Shown here one piece after another: positions 1 through 6,733 of a DNA stretch of 64,000 nucleotides. Numbering within the stretch: position 1 is the first letter of the stretch; each line of letters begins with the position of its first letter. A program made the position numbers and the translations under genes. The notes beneath the pieces are model-generated. The model was not told the DNA's origin. It did no database searches and was given only the letters and a program-made list of their open reading frames with translations. The DNA lies in the NCBI GenBank assembly GCA_963695855.1, contig CAVOHZ010000003.1:352001-416000 (forward strand), read 5' to 3'. The DNA is from an uncultured Nitrososphaerales archaeon (GTDB lineage Archaea > Thermoproteota > Nitrososphaeria > Nitrososphaerales > Nitrososphaeraceae).

Positions 1-1169
1 TTTTAGAAGACAAAGTAGATTATGCTGCGAAATTTGGAAAAATAGAATCTAAAATAATACAAAAAAGAATCCAGAATTACCTGGATCAGTTATTTCTTTA
101 TCGTTCTCGTATTTTAATTAGTGATCTCTATCTTGAAAAAATGGTATCGGAAAAGGGGAAAAGTATTCTTATTACAGGATCTCATGGCTTAATAGGATCT
201 GCACTTATTCCGTTATTAACGAATATAGGTGATCATAAGATTACTCGTCTTGTAAGAAGTACAATTAATAAAAGTAATCATTCTACTTCAAATGAAGCTA
301 ATGAAAAAATAATATACTGGGATCCTAAACATAAACAACTAAATCATCATGACCTTGAGGGGTTTGACATAGTCATTCATTTGGCAGGTGAAAATATTTT
401 TGGAAGGTGGACAAATACAAAAAAACAAAAAATATTTGATAGTCGTGTTGAGGGTACGAAACTTTTTGTTGAGGGTACGAAACTTTTGTCTGAATCTTTA
501 ACTAAACTATCAAATCCTCCATCATTATTAATATGTGCGTCAGCAATTGGATATTATGGAGATAAGCCCAACGAATATCTTACAGAGGATAACAATCCGG
601 GACAAGGATTTCTATCTGAGGTATGTCAAAAATGGGAAAATGCAACACTAGATGCATCTAAGGTAGGAATAAGAGTAGTAGATACACGTTTTGGTATCGT
701 ATTAAGTCCAAAAGGAGGAATTTTAAAAAAATAACTCACATCTTTCAAATTAGGTCTTGGCATATCAATTGGATATAAACATCAGTATATGAGCTGGGTC
801 TCAATAGAGGACGTTATAAAAATTATTTTTTATTCTATAATAAACCCATCAATCCAAGGAGCTGTTAACGTAGTATCACCAAATCCAGCTACAAATCTGG
901 AGTTTTCCAATATGCTCAAAAAATTATATAATACAAAGTTGTTAATATCAATCAATCAAAATATAACCGAACTCATTTTTGGACAAATGTCTGATGAATT
1001 ACTATCTACAATAGCTATGTCATTCCCAAAAAAGTTAGTTTCAACTGGATACAAGTTTTTTAATCCAGATTTGGAGGACACACTCAGATTCCTACTTGGA
1101 AAAATGAAATTAAATAATAATAATAGTCTTCAGAGATCAAATATGAAAAATCAAAACATGTCAAAATAA
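1..1169 (+). pseudogene. SRPBCC-domain/TIGR01777 (YfcH/SDR39U1-like) epimerase fusion, 5' end outside window, broken by an in-frame TAA
   Basis: Frame is open from nt 3 (LEDKVDY...LFLYRSRIL, SRPBCC C-terminus-like) into ILITGSHGLIG, HLAGENI, CASAIGYYG, VCQKWE. TAA at 732-734 is followed in frame by LTSFKLGLG..QYMSWVSIED (ORF 789-1169). A 21-bp tandem duplication (VEGTKLF/VEGTKLL) lies at about 447-488. Confidence 0.8.
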
Positions 1170-1496: not shown

Positions 1497-1510
1497 CTAG
1501 TTGGCACTAT
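1497..1510 (+). promoter_or_regulatory. Palindromic motif CTAGT-TGGC-ACTAT, about 20 bp upstream of TTTTATAT box
   Basis: Matches the copies at 4757-4771 and 4918-4932 in sequence and in spacing to the TATA box. Confidence 0.5.
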
Positions 1511-1558: not shown

Positions 1559-2125
1559 ATGTTGAAACATGATCACAGCACGAGGAATATAATATTATAC
1601 TCTACGTTAGCAGGATTTATATCAGCTTGGGCAATTTCAGGATTATTAGTTATTGTTGATATTATATCACAAACACCAATAGGTACGTTCTTTGCAGTAA
1701 TAGGATCATCTCTTGGTTATTATGATACCTCTGTATCACAATATATTGGATTTGCACTACATATTGCAACAGGTACTGTAGCAGGTAATATTTTTGGTCA
1801 AATAGCTTTATTTTGGAACAAACTATTCCCATATAATTTCAAATTAGGAATAACTTATGGAGTAATAGTTAGTGTTTCTCTGTGGGCAATATTATTCCTA
1901 CCTCTAGCTACATTTGTAATTCAACCCAAACTCGATGCATTTGCACTATCTGCTCCAAATCAATATCTATTTATAATAGCTAACCACTTTCAAGGACTTT
2001 ATCCACTTGTCGCCATAGGATCTTTAGGATTTCACATAATATATGGAATTGTGTTGGGATTCATGATATGGAGAATGATCGATTTAAAAGTATTTGTACC
2101 AATCAACAGAGAACCAATACAATAA
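1559..2125 (+). CDS. Integral membrane protein (about 4 TM, with His residues in TM segments)
   Basis: 188-aa ORF with hydrophobic helices, ALHIATG and GFHIIYG motifs; TATA at about 1531. Confidence 0.75.
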   Translation: MLKHDHSTRNIILYSTLAGFISAWAISGLLVIVDIISQTPIGTFFAVIGSSLGYYDTSVSQYIGFALHIATGTVAGNIFGQIALFWNKLFPYNFKLGITYGVIVSVSLWAILFLPLATFVIQPKLDAFALSAPNQYLFIIANHFQGLYPLVAIGSLGFHIIYGIVLGFMIWRMIDLKVFVPINREPIQ

Positions 2126-2381: not shown

Positions 2382-3755
2382 ATGTACAATAACAAAAATA
2401 AAAAACAACAAAATTTAAGAGTGCTAGTAACTGGAGCAACTGGATTTATTGGTAGTAGAATTGTTAAGAGACTTTTAGCCGATAGAAAATATTATGTTAG
2501 ATGTATGACAAGAAATCCCGATTGTATTTATGAACTTTTTAATTTAAGTGGTGATATCATAGATGTTGTAAAAGCTGATGCTTCAAATTATTTAGAATTA
2601 GTAGAAGCCCTAAAAGAGGTGGATGTGGCTTTTTATCTTATACATTCTATGGAAGGTTCATCAAAAAAATGGAAAGAATTCTCTAAAAGAGATAGAACTG
2701 CTGCTGAAAATTTTGCTAAAGCAGCCTCAATAACAAATACAAAAAGAATAATTTACCTGAGTGGTCTTATTGATACAGATCATAAGGATTTATCTGAGCA
2801 TATGAAAAGTAGAAAAGAAGTAGGAGATATTTTAAGGACTTCAAAGGCCTACGTTACAATATTTCGTGCTGCTGTTATTTTAGGTCAAGGAGGTGGTTCC
2901 TTTCAAATGTTACAATATCTAGTGGAAAGGCTTCCGATGATGGTATGTCCTAAATGGGTGTTGACTAAATCACAACCTATATCAGTAGATGATGTAGTAA
3001 CTTATTTAGTCAAGTCAATAGAAACCAAGGATACAGTTAGTCAAGATTATGATATAGGCGGACCTGAGATTCTTAGCTATGTAGATATGATGAAAAGATA
3101 TTCAAGTATTCTAAAAAAATCATTAAAAATCATTATTATTCCATTTTTGACTCCTAGGCTTTCCTCTTATTGGATTGATCTTATTACTCCTGTAAAAGCA
3201 TCACTTGCTAGACCATTAATAGATAGTTTAAAACATGAAGCAGTAGCTCATAATAATGAAATCCAAAAGTTAATTCCTATTAGACTAATGAACTTTGAAG
3301 AATCTATTAGAACTGCAATGAAAGAAGAAGTAAGAAGAACTAAGGTAACAAAAAAACAAAAAACATCAGACTCTCTTAACAGAACAATATTGTTTTTTTC
3401 ATTGATTTCTTTGGGAATAATTGGTTCAACATATTATTTTTTAGATAATAGAAGCGACATTGTAACCCCTCTCTGGATAATATTAGCCACTGTATGGTAC
3501 TTTGGAATTTTATTTGCTTTATTTTTCGTCAAAAATGGTGCAAGACTAGGTTCAATGGTAGGAGGTATTATAGGATGGATAACATTAGTATTCTGGTTAT
3601 TCAATAGCATACATTTGATAACTCATAATTTGATTGATTTCTCATCTCAAATTGTTGTGATTATGATTCGAAATTTTGTTGGAGCCATTGTAGCTGGATT
3701 GGTTATAGCTGCTTCCCATAATCTCTTCCATAAAATCAGAATATTAGGAAATTAA
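2382..3755 (+). CDS. YbjT-like NAD(P)-binding atypical SDR with C-terminal transmembrane domain
   Basis: VLVTGATGFIG, AFYLIHSM, LSEHMKSR, FRAAVILG, QPISVDDV, TPRLSSYW motifs; about 4 TM helices at the C-terminus. Confidence 0.85.
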   Translation: MYNNKNKKQQNLRVLVTGATGFIGSRIVKRLLADRKYYVRCMTRNPDCIYELFNLSGDIIDVVKADASNYLELVEALKEVDVAFYLIHSMEGSSKKWKEFSKRDRTAAENFAKAASITNTKRIIYLSGLIDTDHKDLSEHMKSRKEVGDILRTSKAYVTIFRAAVILGQGGGSFQMLQYLVERLPMMVCPKWVLTKSQPISVDDVVTYLVKSIETKDTVSQDYDIGGPEILSYVDMMKRYSSILKKSLKIIIIPFLTPRLSSYWIDLITPVKASLARPLIDSLKHEAVAHNNEIQKLIPIRLMNFEESIRTAMKEEVRRTKVTKKQKTSDSLNRTILFFSLISLGIIGSTYYFLDNRSDIVTPLWIILATVWYFGILFALFFVKNGARLGSMVGGIIGWITLVFWLFNSIHLITHNLIDFSSQIVVIMIRNFVGAIVAGLVIAASHNLFHKIRILGN

Positions 3756-3818: not shown

Positions 3819-4706
3819 TCAATTATTCATTAGCGATTTCATAGTAGTAATTATATCATCAATTTTCCCGAGATCAAGATAAACCTTTTCATATTTTTCT
3901 AATAATTCAATTTGAGAGTTAGATGCTAATTTAATTGCATTACCTCCAACAACAATAGGATTATTAAAAGATTTACGAATTTCTTTTACTAATCTGGTTA
4001 CTGAACTTATATTTTCTTCTAACGTAACAGATATGATAACGAGACTGGGATTGTTATTATTCAAATACGAGTTAATAGAATTCGTTGGAAGAGGAGAGGT
4101 AATATTAAAAACTTCATAGCCTTTTTGAAGTAATAATGATTCAATGATTTTACATCCTATACTATGAAGTTCTCCTTCAGGAGTACATATTATTATTAGT
4201 TTAGGATTTAATGAATTTTTAGAAATTTTTTTATTAGCATTTTTTTGATTGATTAAATCAATTAGATTATTTACTGCATTACTGCATACATGTTCTGTTG
4301 CAACATCGATTTCTCCATTTACCCATTGATCACCTATCCTATATAATACAGGTATCAAGATTTTCTCATAAAAATCTAATAACGAATATACTGATTTTGT
4401 ATATTCATTGTATATGTTCATCAATTCATTTATTTGATACATTTTTAATCTTTCGAAAAGTGTTTCTTGTAATGTTTCATTTACTTTCATGGATTTTGAG
4501 AAATCAAGGTTATGGTGAGCCAAAAATTTTATAATTGCAGATTCATTTCGGTATTCTTCTGTAATTTTATTAATATTTATTTGAGATAGTGGACCTAAGT
4601 ATTGCTTCGTTATTTGTTGAGATGTTTGTTTTTCTTTATTCCATTTACTTTCAACAATATAAGCATAATCAATATTTTTTACTTTTTTTATTCTAATATA
4701 CACCAA
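3819..4706 (-). CDS. Cobalamin-binding (CarH/LitR-type) regulator with atypical N-terminal putative DNA-binding domain
   Basis: IGDQW-x9-EH (four-helix cap) and GELHSIG (ExHxxG) plus IISVT and VVGG Rossmann strands; N-terminus YIRIKKVKNIDYAYIVESKWNKEKQTSQQITKQYLG. Confidence 0.85.
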   Translation of the reverse strand: MVYIRIKKVKNIDYAYIVESKWNKEKQTSQQITKQYLGPLSQININKITEEYRNESAIIKFLAHHNLDFSKSMKVNETLQETLFERLKMYQINELMNIYNEYTKSVYSLLDFYEKILIPVLYRIGDQWVNGEIDVATEHVCSNAVNNLIDLINQKNANKKISKNSLNPKLIIICTPEGELHSIGCKIIESLLLQKGYEVFNITSPLPTNSINSYLNNNNPSLVIISVTLEENISSVTRLVKEIRKSFNNPIVVGGNAIKLASNSQIELLEKYEKVYLDLGKIDDIITTMKSLMNN

Positions 4707-4756
4707 TATGGTATAATTTTCAACTCTTTTATTTATATTTAGTGCATAACTGAACT

Positions 4757-4771
4757 TATAGTGCTAACTAA
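4757..4771 (-). promoter_or_regulatory. TAGT-N4-ACTA palindrome upstream of the B12-regulator promoter
   Basis: Minus strand reads TAGTTAGCACTATA, then about 19 nt, then TATAAATA; a weaker second copy CAGTTATGCACTA follows the first. Confidence 0.55.
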
Positions 4772-4917
4772 TATTTAGATAAAAGAATCCAATGTAATTT
4801 CAGAAATAATATATATAAAATAAGAAACATTGTACTAATAAATTTTAAACAGAATATTCTATAAAATAAAACTTTTATTTCTGCCATTTATTTAATAATT
4901 CAACATTTTCGTTCATA

Positions 4918-4932
4918 ATAGTTAGCACTATA
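4918..4932 (+). promoter_or_regulatory. TAGT-N4-ACTA palindrome upstream of ORF 4972
   Basis: TAGTTAGCACTATA (4919-4932) is the exact reverse complement of 4757-4770; TTTTAAATA lies about 20 nt downstream. Confidence 0.55.
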
Positions 4933-4971
4933 GAAGATAGTTTGTAGTCGTTTTAAATATTTATTTGCAAA

Positions 4972-5316
4972 TTGTACACTAGAGATATGAAACAGACTAT
5001 TGATTATCCACTAGAATTCTCTGTTAAGATGACTTTTGGCGAGAGTTACCTTGTAGGAAAAGCTTCTAGTAACGGTAGAAATTATAATATAAATATTCAG
5101 GGAGGACGAAAAGGAATAGTTTTACCTAGAGAAATGGTAAAAGCATTTGGTGAAGTTATTGTTAGCTTTTTTACTGAAAAGAAAAATGAGATAATGTTAA
5201 CTGCGAAAGTAGAGGCGGGTTTGGATTGGATCGAAATCTATGATGATTTCTTAATTTGGTCTTTGGCAAATGATCTCCCTATATCCATGATCATTGATTA
5301 TCAGAGATTGACCTAG
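4972..5316 (+). CDS. Hypothetical protein, divergent from the B12 regulator
   Basis: 114-aa ORF (ATG at 4987 is an alternative start) with normal globular composition and a TATA box upstream. Confidence 0.55.
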   Translation: MYTRDMKQTIDYPLEFSVKMTFGESYLVGKASSNGRNYNINIQGGRKGIVLPREMVKAFGEVIVSFFTEKKNEIMLTAKVEAGLDWIEIYDDFLIWSLANDLPISMIIDYQRLT

Positions 5317-6109: not shown

Positions 6110-6733
6110 TTGAAAATAGAACAAAAATTTGAAGAATCTAGTACATATTCACTATTCTTGTTTGCAATTAGATCAAATGTAACAAGAGACTATTATCTAA
6201 GAAGATTAAGGATTTTCTTTAATCATATTAATCTAGAACCTGATAAAACAATGGAAGAAAGATTTAATTACTTTGCTAGAAAAAGAACAAAAGATCCGAA
6301 TTGGGCATTTAATGCAGTAACAAAATTCTTGCAATTTCAAAAGGAAAGGGTTAAAATGGAAGAGATTACAGAAGCGACACTTCGTAATTTCATAAAAGCA
6401 ATAAAATTATTCTGTGAAATGTCAGATATCAAAATAGAATGGAAAAAGATAACTCGAGGATTACCAAAGATAAGAAGACATGCTGATGATAGATCACCAA
6501 CAATAGAGGAAATACAGAAAATTTGTGAATACCCTGATAGACGGATAAAAGGGATTGTCTATACAATGGCTTCATCTGGGATAAGACTTGGTGCATGGGA
6601 TTATTTATACTGGAAGGATATTCAACCAATAGAACGTCAAGGTAAAATCGTAGCAGCAAAAATTATTGTCTATGCTGGAGACGATGAAGAGTATTTTTCG
6701 TTTATAACTCCTGAAATTAGTAGTACAACCTAA
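6110..6733 (+). pseudogene. Tyrosine recombinase/integrase, C-terminally truncated
   Basis: WKKITRGLP, DRSPTIEEI, MASSGIRLGAWDYL (catalytic Arg), YFSFITPE, then ends before the HxxR and Tyr boxes; paralogue of 15953-16967. Confidence 0.85.

Follow-up and report, generated by a model that had tools for sequence, protein, structure and literature searches.

Regulators that sense light through vitamin B12 are known from bacteria, where they carry a MerR head. In CarH, or class I LitR, of Thermus thermophilus (structures 5C8D and 5C8E), Myxococcus xanthus and Bacillus megaterium, a MerR winged-helix domain is joined to a module made of a four-helix bundle and a Rossmann-type B12-binding domain. 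Here we describe a candidate B12-binding regulator encoded in a 64,000-nucleotide stretch of DNA (hereafter, the window) from an uncultured Nitrososphaerales archaeon, a soil ammonia oxidiser (assembly GCA_963695855.1, contig CAVOHZ010000003.1, positions 352,001 to 416,000). The regulator has the cobalamin module in common with CarH, whereas the place of the MerR head is taken by a predicted three-stranded β-sheet domain of about 40 residues that is also found at the start of IS1634 transposases (family model NF033559), for example that of ISAzo6 from Aromatoleum aromaticum. It also differs from CarH in having an archaeal host, with a promoter of the TATA box/B recognition element (BRE) type, and in that its candidate target genes are not carotenoid genes. 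We propose that the protein is probably a CarH-like sensor of adenosylcobalamin (AdoCbl) with an IS1634-type head, which would bind DNA in the dark and be released by light, repressing the gene that encodes it and a few genes nearby.

Domain organization and the cobalamin module

In the list of open reading frames (ORFs) and their translations, the regulator gene spans positions 3819..4706 on the minus strand, stop codon included, in a window with a G+C content of about 29%. It encodes 295 amino acids from a TTG start, and its first residues are MVYIRIKKVKNIDYAYIVESKWNKEKQTSQQITKQYLG. This start yields the same MVYIR beginning that is conserved in homologues, of which 597 were found at an expectation value (E) of 0.001 or below; the best among those listed are 71–78% identical over the full length and are named Nitrososphaeraceae archaeon. 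As read from the 120 homologues listed of these 597, the start of the protein, MVYIRxKKVKN..YAY.VES.WNKEK.TS.Q.T.QYLG, is almost invariant. A second copy in the same genome, on contig C11, is a paralogue of 291 amino acids that is 44% identical. We worked with two alignments, one of 24 members of the family (A3) and one of 17 N-termini (A2). Mean pairwise identity is highest in residues 1–40 (64%), compared with 39% in the linker that follows and 47% over the whole protein. Because it is conserved across homologues and is the best-conserved region of the protein, the N-terminal stretch is not a chance sequence.

Residues 80–260 constitute a CarH-type cobalamin module with intact motifs. The four-helix-bundle B12 cap domain (residues 80–156; 4239..4469, minus strand) is matched by Pfam B12-binding_2 (PF02607) at residues 80–151, with 45.5 bits against a cut-off of 23 (E = 8.6e-12), and the Rossmann-type B12-binding domain (residues 170–260; 3927..4199, minus strand) by Pfam B12-binding (PF02310) at residues 171–258, with 39.9 bits against a cut-off of 32.1 (E = 4.2e-10). 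In CarH, the Wx9EH signature lies in the four-helix bundle that caps the adenosyl group on the upper axial side. An excerpt of PMC9304148 describes this signature as "crucial for CarH photoreceptor activity", an activity that is AdoCbl-specific, and gives the lower-axial B12 signature of CarH as D/ExHx2G/P-x41-SxT/V-x22-27-GG. Both cobalamin motifs are present in the regulator. The first reads W128-x9-E138-H139 (nucleotides 4290–4325), and the second reads E179xH181xxG184-x41-S226xT228-x25-G254G255, with E179-x-H181-xx-G184 at nucleotides 4155–4172. Across the 24 sequences of A3, W128, E138 and H139 are invariant, as are P176, G178, E179 and H181, and G184 is nearly so; S226, T228, G254 and G255 are conserved as well.

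An AlphaFold2 model of the full-length protein, built from A3, had a mean predicted local distance difference test (pLDDT) score of 84.2. When it was compared with the PDB using Foldseek, the top matches were light-sensing B12 domains, led by 8jbs (E = 3.7e-12) and the photocobilin 8j2w (E = 1.8e-11), with the cobalamin-binding domain of T. thermophilus CarH (TtCarH) and 5c8d at E values of about 5e-10. When PDB sequences were searched by profile, light-sensing B12 domains ranked in the same order (8jbs, 8j2w/8j2x, 5c8d; best E = 3e-19), and the B12 module also matched AerR (7te2) at E = 2.2e-10. The modules closest to that of the regulator thus belong to a Chloracidobacterium MerR-family protein (8JBS), the photocobilins (8J2W) and AerR (7TE2), which carry a MerR head, a bilin-binding globin-like domain or no DNA-binding domain, and none of which has an IS1634-type N-terminal domain. 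A homodimer prediction (two full-length copies, from A3) scored 0.05 against a mark of 0.42 and was counted neither way.

The NCBIfam model of CarH, NF052513 (TransRegCarH), aligned its positions 69–252 of 274 to residues 57–259 of the regulator, with 48.5 bits against a cut-off of 400. Since the alignment starts only at model position 69, the DNA-binding part of CarH has no counterpart in the regulator, which resembles CarH but lacks its defining MerR head. A preliminary description of this DNA had placed the N-terminus of the protein where CarH has its MerR helix-turn-helix (HTH), a placement borne out by the Pfam layout and by the NF052513 alignment; the peptide that it quoted corresponds to residues 3–38 (nucleotides 4593–4700, within 4560–4706).

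The N-terminal domain and IS1634 transposases

The N-terminal domain (residues 1–40; 4587..4706, minus strand) is predicted to form a three-stranded antiparallel β-sheet. AlphaFold2 placed the strands at residues 2–9, 12–23 and 28–39, followed by a short helix, and the full-length model agreed with a model of residues 1–58 alone, which had a mean pLDDT of 91.1, with values above 90 in the sheet (residues 1–40). Residues 1–40 contain eight lysines and arginines versus three aspartates and glutamates. The linker that follows (residues 41–79; 4470..4586, minus strand) has short helices, at residues 50–53 and 56–64 in the AlphaFold2 model, and includes a conserved DIPxEYR motif; P49, Y52 and R53 are invariant or nearly so in A2 and A3. 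No Pfam family exceeded its cut-off across residues 1–79, and a match to PDDEXK_9 in this region (E = 0.04, 14.3 bits against a cut-off of 25.5) was discarded as noise. Neither Pfam nor NCBIfam gave a MerR or HTH match at E values up to 10, and no MerR or winged HTH domain was present among the fold-search matches of the N-terminal model. The predicted sheet and these searches agree with the earlier view that the N-terminus is β-rich and not of the MerR type. A search of PDB sequences with the N-terminal domain profile had a best E value of 1.4, and comparison of residues 1–58 with the ESM Atlas gave scores of 0.79–0.80 to unnamed clusters, which was uninformative.

To look for relatives of the domain, the A2 profile was searched against 1.84 billion representative proteins, giving 754 matches at E ≤ 0.001, of which the best 150 were listed. 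P0259, a protein of 526 amino acids, was matched at residues 1–41 with 52.8 bits (E = 3.3e-9). By the curated model NF033559 (215.4 bits, cut-off 100, E = 1.6e-63) this protein belongs to the IS1634 family of transposases, and it carries DDE_Tnp_1. Position 1 of NF033559 aligns to residue 29 of P0259; the curated model therefore omits the first two strands, which is why family scans of the regulator saw no IS1634. A word-indexed search with residues 1–45 of P0259 returned only P0259 and P0272. We also compared a further IS1634 set of ten sequences, five from the same phylum (L040, L042, L046, L052 and L039, the last an 86-amino-acid partial ORF on a 750-nucleotide contig that is itself not verified as a transposase) and five plasmid proteins annotated "IS1634 family transposase", from Rhodococcus, Alicyclobacillus, Dietzia, Sulfitobacter and Aromatoleum (ISAzo6). 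Two more sequences were unhelpful for this set, L045, which is without the domain, and L041, whose start is unclear or truncated.

All ten sequences begin with the same pattern (for example, MVFIRYEKRGNKEYAYQLTSYRDKTTKQVKHQKTYLG in L046), which in the regulator and IS1634 proteins can be written h-[FY]-h-R/K-x-K...Y-x-Y/Q-L-V-x-S...YLG/LGR. Across 12 IS1634-type sequences, that is, with P0259 and P0272 added to the ten (partial ORF L039 included), the best match to A2 was N-terminal in every case and started at residue 1 or 2 in eight, with scores from 52.8 down to 2.6 bits. When A2 was aligned by hhalign to the ten IS1634 N-termini, without P0259 and P0272, the probability was 98.5%, with E = 2.7e-15 and a score of 72.1 over 51 columns. 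In controls, 200 column shuffles scored 8.8 on average and 14.4 at most, and a reversed alignment scored 8.7. With a reciprocal profile made from IS1634 N-termini only (A4), 8000 proteins were scored and 3847 of them matched at E ≤ 0.001; among 117 proteins newly listed, 75 were at least 500 amino acids long, and those with source names were IS1634 family transposases. The N-terminal domain is therefore a general feature of the IS1634 family.

That this likeness reflects chance, or convergence of short, basic, β-rich segments, is very improbable. The domain has only some 40 residues, several IS1634 members stay below 12 bits singly, and neither side has a solved structure. Set against this are the E value of P0259 (3.3e-9) in a search of 1.84 billion proteins, an hhalign score that no shuffle approached, and the N-terminal position of the best match in all 12 IS1634-type sequences, so that we consider the explanation close to refuted. 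As judged from these profile comparisons, the regulator N-terminus is homologous to the N-terminal domain of IS1634 transposases, a resemblance that the preliminary description had recognized. Beyond this domain, the regulator differs from the transposases: the protein has no match to NF033559 or DDE_Tnp_1 at E ≤ 10, its head is followed by the B12 module, and the gene, present as a single copy and conserved alongside the genes around it, is no mobile element. No flanking inverted repeat was seen around the gene, and none was sought.

The distribution of the domain was read from the 150 listed A2 matches, 73 of which are at least 150 amino acids long. Among these 73 proteins, 44 carry B12-binding domains and one each carries an HNH domain (P0220), AbiEii (P0254, from a Diapherotrites archaeon) and DDE_Tnp_1 (P0259). 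The other 26 have no Pfam family and mostly form one family of 160–185 amino acids (P0217, P0226, P0234–P0235, P0240–P0252 and others), in which the N-terminal domain precedes about 120 residues without a Pfam family. The domain occurs in small proteins too, and P0212 has a tandem double copy of it. The fusion to a B12 module is present in Thermoplasmatota (P0221) and in 28 of the 43 genomes of the sister family f2, with two copies in the present genome. In this genome no IS1634 transposase scored over the cut-off, and a scan of the 43 f2 genomes with NF033559 at E ≤ 1e-10 was likewise negative.

A maximum-likelihood tree of 75 domain copies, based on 47 columns, had good support for 7 of its 72 branches. 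The IS1634 copies fell in at least two places, with 8 of 12 among high-GC B12 proteins. Because branch support is so poor, no direction of transfer can be read from the tree. The N-terminal domain is old in this lineage and vertically inherited. Its recruitment from the mobile pool appears plausible, since the domain is widespread in bacterial and archaeal IS1634 proteins and the B12 fusion was seen here in archaea; alternatively, regulator and transposases may both have taken it from a common pool. The earlier proposal of a domesticated transposase module thus stands as regards homology and coupling to a B12 module, but not as regards an origin in a transposase, for which the 75-copy tree gives no direction.

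Two observations on other copies of the domain were made along the way. On the 750-nucleotide contig of L039 (G242:C277), a piece of an IS1634 DDE domain lies on the minus strand (9–383) and the ORF with the N-terminal domain on the plus strand (492–749), and the two may be element copies facing each other. Upstream of the high-GC Thermoplasmatota homologue P0221 (L063:1430-1470), TAGTGCC and AGTGCCTAA are found about 22 nucleotides apart, at this single locus; the upstream neighbour of P0221 is an ORF that, by eye, resembles a PAS histidine kinase.

Promoter repeats and neighbouring genes

The promoter of the regulator gene contains a candidate operator (4740..4767, minus strand), a direct repeat of two boxes 19 nucleotides apart, with TTAGCACTA at 4759–4767 and TATGCACTA at 4740–4748. 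Directly downstream of the proximal repeat is AATATAAATA (4730..4739, minus strand), which is TATA-box-like and presumably serves as the TATA box; related loci have TTATATA or TTAAATA at this position. The upstream order is thus TTAGCACTA, 10 nucleotides, TATGCACTA, AATATAAATA, about 24 nucleotides and the start codon. TtCarH reportedly also binds tandem direct repeats overlapping the core promoter, with a spacing of 11 nucleotides versus 19 in the candidate operator. The paralogue on contig C11 is preceded by two perfect copies of TTAGCACTA, again 19 nucleotides apart, and then TATAAATA.

We surveyed 29 loci of ammonia-oxidising archaea for this arrangement, 27 from f2 and both paralogues of this genome, and scored pairs of sites 17–23 nucleotides apart with no more than two mismatches each to TTAGCACTA. 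The counts do not include G060, with its split match, or G120, G148 and G242, where matches were weak and partial. A repeat pair was found in 24 of the 29 loci, mostly near −57/−38 from the start codon, and the spacing was exactly 19 nucleotides in 23 of the 24; mononucleotide shuffles gave a pair in 0.23 loci on average and in two at most. The spacer between the paired boxes is not conserved. When the 3.55-Mb genome was scanned for pairs with up to two mismatches in total, only two were found, in the promoters of both paralogues, compared with one for a control motif. At up to three mismatches the scan was at noise level, with 14 pairs versus 15 for the control. Taken together, the alignments and scans indicate a footprint that is sharp and tied to the regulator gene. 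In 10 of the 29 loci, a reverse-oriented pair lies further upstream, where a divergent gene for a protein resembling short-chain dehydrogenases/reductases (SDR-like), with a membrane domain, starts. In G060 (C1:1500231-1500391, locus L038, f2), the N-terminal match runs across two open frames (34 and 101 amino acids), and the gene may be frameshifted or decaying.

The operator was also compared with the ends of IS1634 elements. The terminal inverted repeats of two archaeal elements, L046 (1064–1093 / 2600–2629) and L042 (1116–1146 / 2561–2591), end inwardly in GGGCACTACA and TTATCACTACAT, and have CACTA in common with the box of the regulator, with a chance estimate of about 0.05 for related repeats. 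Of six further IS1634 elements, five, four of them bacterial, end differently; three, for example, show GTTCGACAGT. The common CACTA may be taken as a weak hint of a link between operator and transposon ends.

Further boxes mark candidate target genes in the window. The intergenic region between 4707 and 4971 holds an 18-nucleotide inverted repeat (4757–4774 / 4915–4932), and a third perfect TTAGCACTA box (4922..4930, plus strand) lies within it, upstream of a divergent small ORF. This box is followed after about 20 nucleotides by TTTTAAATA (4951–4959) and then by an ATG at 4987. The small ORF (4987..5316, plus strand) is conserved and would encode 114 amino acids from a TTG at 4972 or, more likely, 109 from the ATG at 4987. 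It has no Pfam family over the cut-off, and a similar ORF of 116 amino acids adjoins the regulator in L028. Another box, TTGGCACTA (1501..1509, plus strand), is contained in GTTGGCACTATG and lies about 20 nucleotides before a TATA-like run upstream of a gene pair. The two genes, both candidate targets on the plus strand, encode a membrane protein of 188 amino acids (1559..2125) and an NAD(P)-binding, SDR-like protein of 457 amino acids with a C-terminal membrane domain (2382..3755; Pfam NAD_binding_10 and NmrA); a weak match of the pair to DUF6789 was below the cut-off. In related loci the SDR-membrane gene adjoins the regulator.

On C11, next to the paralogue, the corresponding gene pair likewise has GTTGGCACTATG and a TATA box in front of it. 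The whole arrangement has a second copy there (C11:4002-7497; L002 = C11:5733-8879), consisting of box and TATA, a 160-amino-acid membrane protein, a 458-amino-acid SDR-like protein with a membrane domain and, in convergent orientation, the 291-amino-acid regulator paralogue. A photolyase gene (PF03441, 260.6 bits) is located at C3:349800-351392 on the minus strand, about 0.6 kb before the start of the window. In the 10 kb from photolyase to regulator, the core 8-mer [AG]GCACTA[TG] occurs five times, compared with an expected 0.59 (Poisson P = 3.6e-4).

A cluster of nine copies of the core 8-mer at C10:55279-55495 was set aside as a coding-like tandem repeat of 27 nucleotides, unrelated to the operator; its unit, GTACAACTGGCACTAGCCCAATAGAAG, is arranged head-to-tail in what is probably a coding repeat that contains the core 8-mer by chance. 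Soil metatranscriptome contigs hold only small shares of the window, with parts of the SDR-like gene represented in two RNA runs. Coverage of the regulator comes from one metatranscriptome run only, where the reads probably derive from DNA, and a transcript start or level cannot be read from it. Elsewhere in the window, a 197-amino-acid Epimerase/NAD-binding ORF (141–734, plus strand) is followed by a 126-amino-acid ORF (789–1169, plus strand) whose DUF1731 match stays below threshold (24.1 bits, cut-off 27), and the two look like one SDR-type gene that is split, possibly by a frameshift. A 207-amino-acid ORF at 6110–6733 (plus strand) had no Pfam match at E ≤ 0.01; by eye, it may resemble the N-terminal part of a tyrosine integrase.

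Proposed mechanism, alternatives and significance

By analogy with CarH, the regulator is likely an AdoCbl- and light-dependent DNA-binding protein. That the head binds DNA we infer from where the domain sits in the protein and from the conserved box in the promoter. In the dark, the AdoCbl-bound regulator would oligomerise, and the β-sheet heads of the oligomer would bind the direct repeats over the BRE/TATA region. Bound in this way, it would block access of the TATA-binding protein (TBP) and transcription factor B (TFB), and so repress its own gene, the gene pair for the membrane protein and SDR-like protein, the small ORF and perhaps the adjacent photolyase gene. Light would photolyse AdoCbl by breaking its Co–C bond, upon which the oligomer would fall apart and the genes would be switched on. 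We extend this more tentatively, and at somewhat less than even chances, to a light switch of ammonia-oxidising archaea, in which an AdoCbl photoreceptor would read DNA via a β-sheet domain not characterised before, by which IS1634 transposases would recognise their own ends, and would control a photoprotection and repair regulon through TTAGCACTA repeats over the TATA box.

Several observations weigh against the proposal of a light-released repressor with an IS1634-type head. B12 binding, light response and DNA binding are all predicted. Neither a significant fold match nor a known DNA-binding fold came out of Foldseek searches of the PDB and BFVD or of a wide VIA-align search with the N-terminal model. 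Foldseek reached E values of 0.35 (PDB) and 0.057 (BFVD) at best. The best VIA-align Z score, 4.0, was to ribosomal protein S16, and AP2 (6sy0), the arm-binding domain of HPI integrase (3jtz) and PC4 homologues reached Z scores of 2.7–3.0. The Foldseek comparison that the preliminary description had suggested as a check put no MerR or HTH domain among its matches and yielded no significant fold match at all. On the side of homology, hhalign against 42 N-termini from a narrow, mostly proteobacterial set gave 79% (E = 1.5e-5), and individual bacterial IS1634 N-termini reached 2.6–11 bits against the A2 profile. The 29 loci of the operator survey are related, and the counts are a phylogenetic footprint that overstates independence. 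The strict pair is missing in five of them: by eye, L014 and L034 have a variant with a one-base insertion, TTAGGCATTA; L012 and L028 have coding-like sequence directly upstream; and L036 shows neither the strict pair nor a variant box. The two boxes upstream of the photolyase gene, GTTGGGCACTAG and ATTAGGCACTAT, each have a one-base insertion, and the other two promoters of the window each have one well-formed half-site. Finally, a binding site that directly adjoins the TATA box on its upstream side suits an activator no less than a repressor.

The architecture and the operator would speak equally for a DNA-binding regulator that senses cobalamin supply rather than light, with B12 acting as co-repressor in an archaeon that produces it. 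Little light reaches soil organisms, and a B12-binding motif alone is no proof of photochemistry. We nevertheless regard this as unlikely, given that the Wx9EH motif to which the excerpt of PMC9304148 ascribes photoreceptor activity is invariant, that the nearest solved relatives are light sensors, that a photolyase gene with box variants upstream lies 3.3 kb from the regulator, and that, among the genes of the window that have boxes, we saw none for the biosynthesis or transport of cobalamin. Slightly less likely again is a head that does not bind DNA and instead serves protein–protein contacts, as in the antirepressor AerR, or a protein that is a stand-alone B12 carrier, some other factor binding the box. 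Such a role would suit the lack of a fold match to a known DNA-binding domain, the occurrence of the domain on AbiEii, HNH and many small proteins, and the presence of AerR among the PDB matches of the B12 module. Yet the domain is basic, is the best-conserved part of the protein and is placed where CarH carries its DNA-binding head, a position in which DDE transposases, too, usually carry their end-binding domain. In addition, the box pair accompanies the promoter of the regulator itself (24 of 29 loci, and both paralogues), as is usual for genes under autoregulation.

Light is well known to inhibit ammonia-oxidising archaea, which are of major importance as nitrifiers and as producers of B12; to our knowledge, no light sensor has been described for them. 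In a search of full-text literature, with subscription journals largely outside its scope, we found no description of this regulator family or of an IS1634-type head on a B12 sensor, and nothing on B12 photoreceptors in ammonia-oxidising archaea or on the function of the IS1634 N-terminal domain. If the regulator functions as proposed, it would extend the range of B12 photoreceptors to archaea, with a different DNA-reading module, and would be the first sensor of light for ammonia-oxidising archaea. The conserved N-terminal domain of a widespread family of transposases would also gain a likely role, that of binding DNA sequence-specifically, and the CACTA common to the operator and IS1634 ends would then represent a DNA specificity carried over between transposase and regulator. 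Should the light-switch reading hold, the regulon would comprise the photolyase, the SDR-like membrane enzyme and membrane proteins. With a concrete operator sequence and target genes, the regulator can be put to the test as a candidate light-controlled gene switch, and it may provide a molecular handle on the light sensitivity of ammonia-oxidising archaea.

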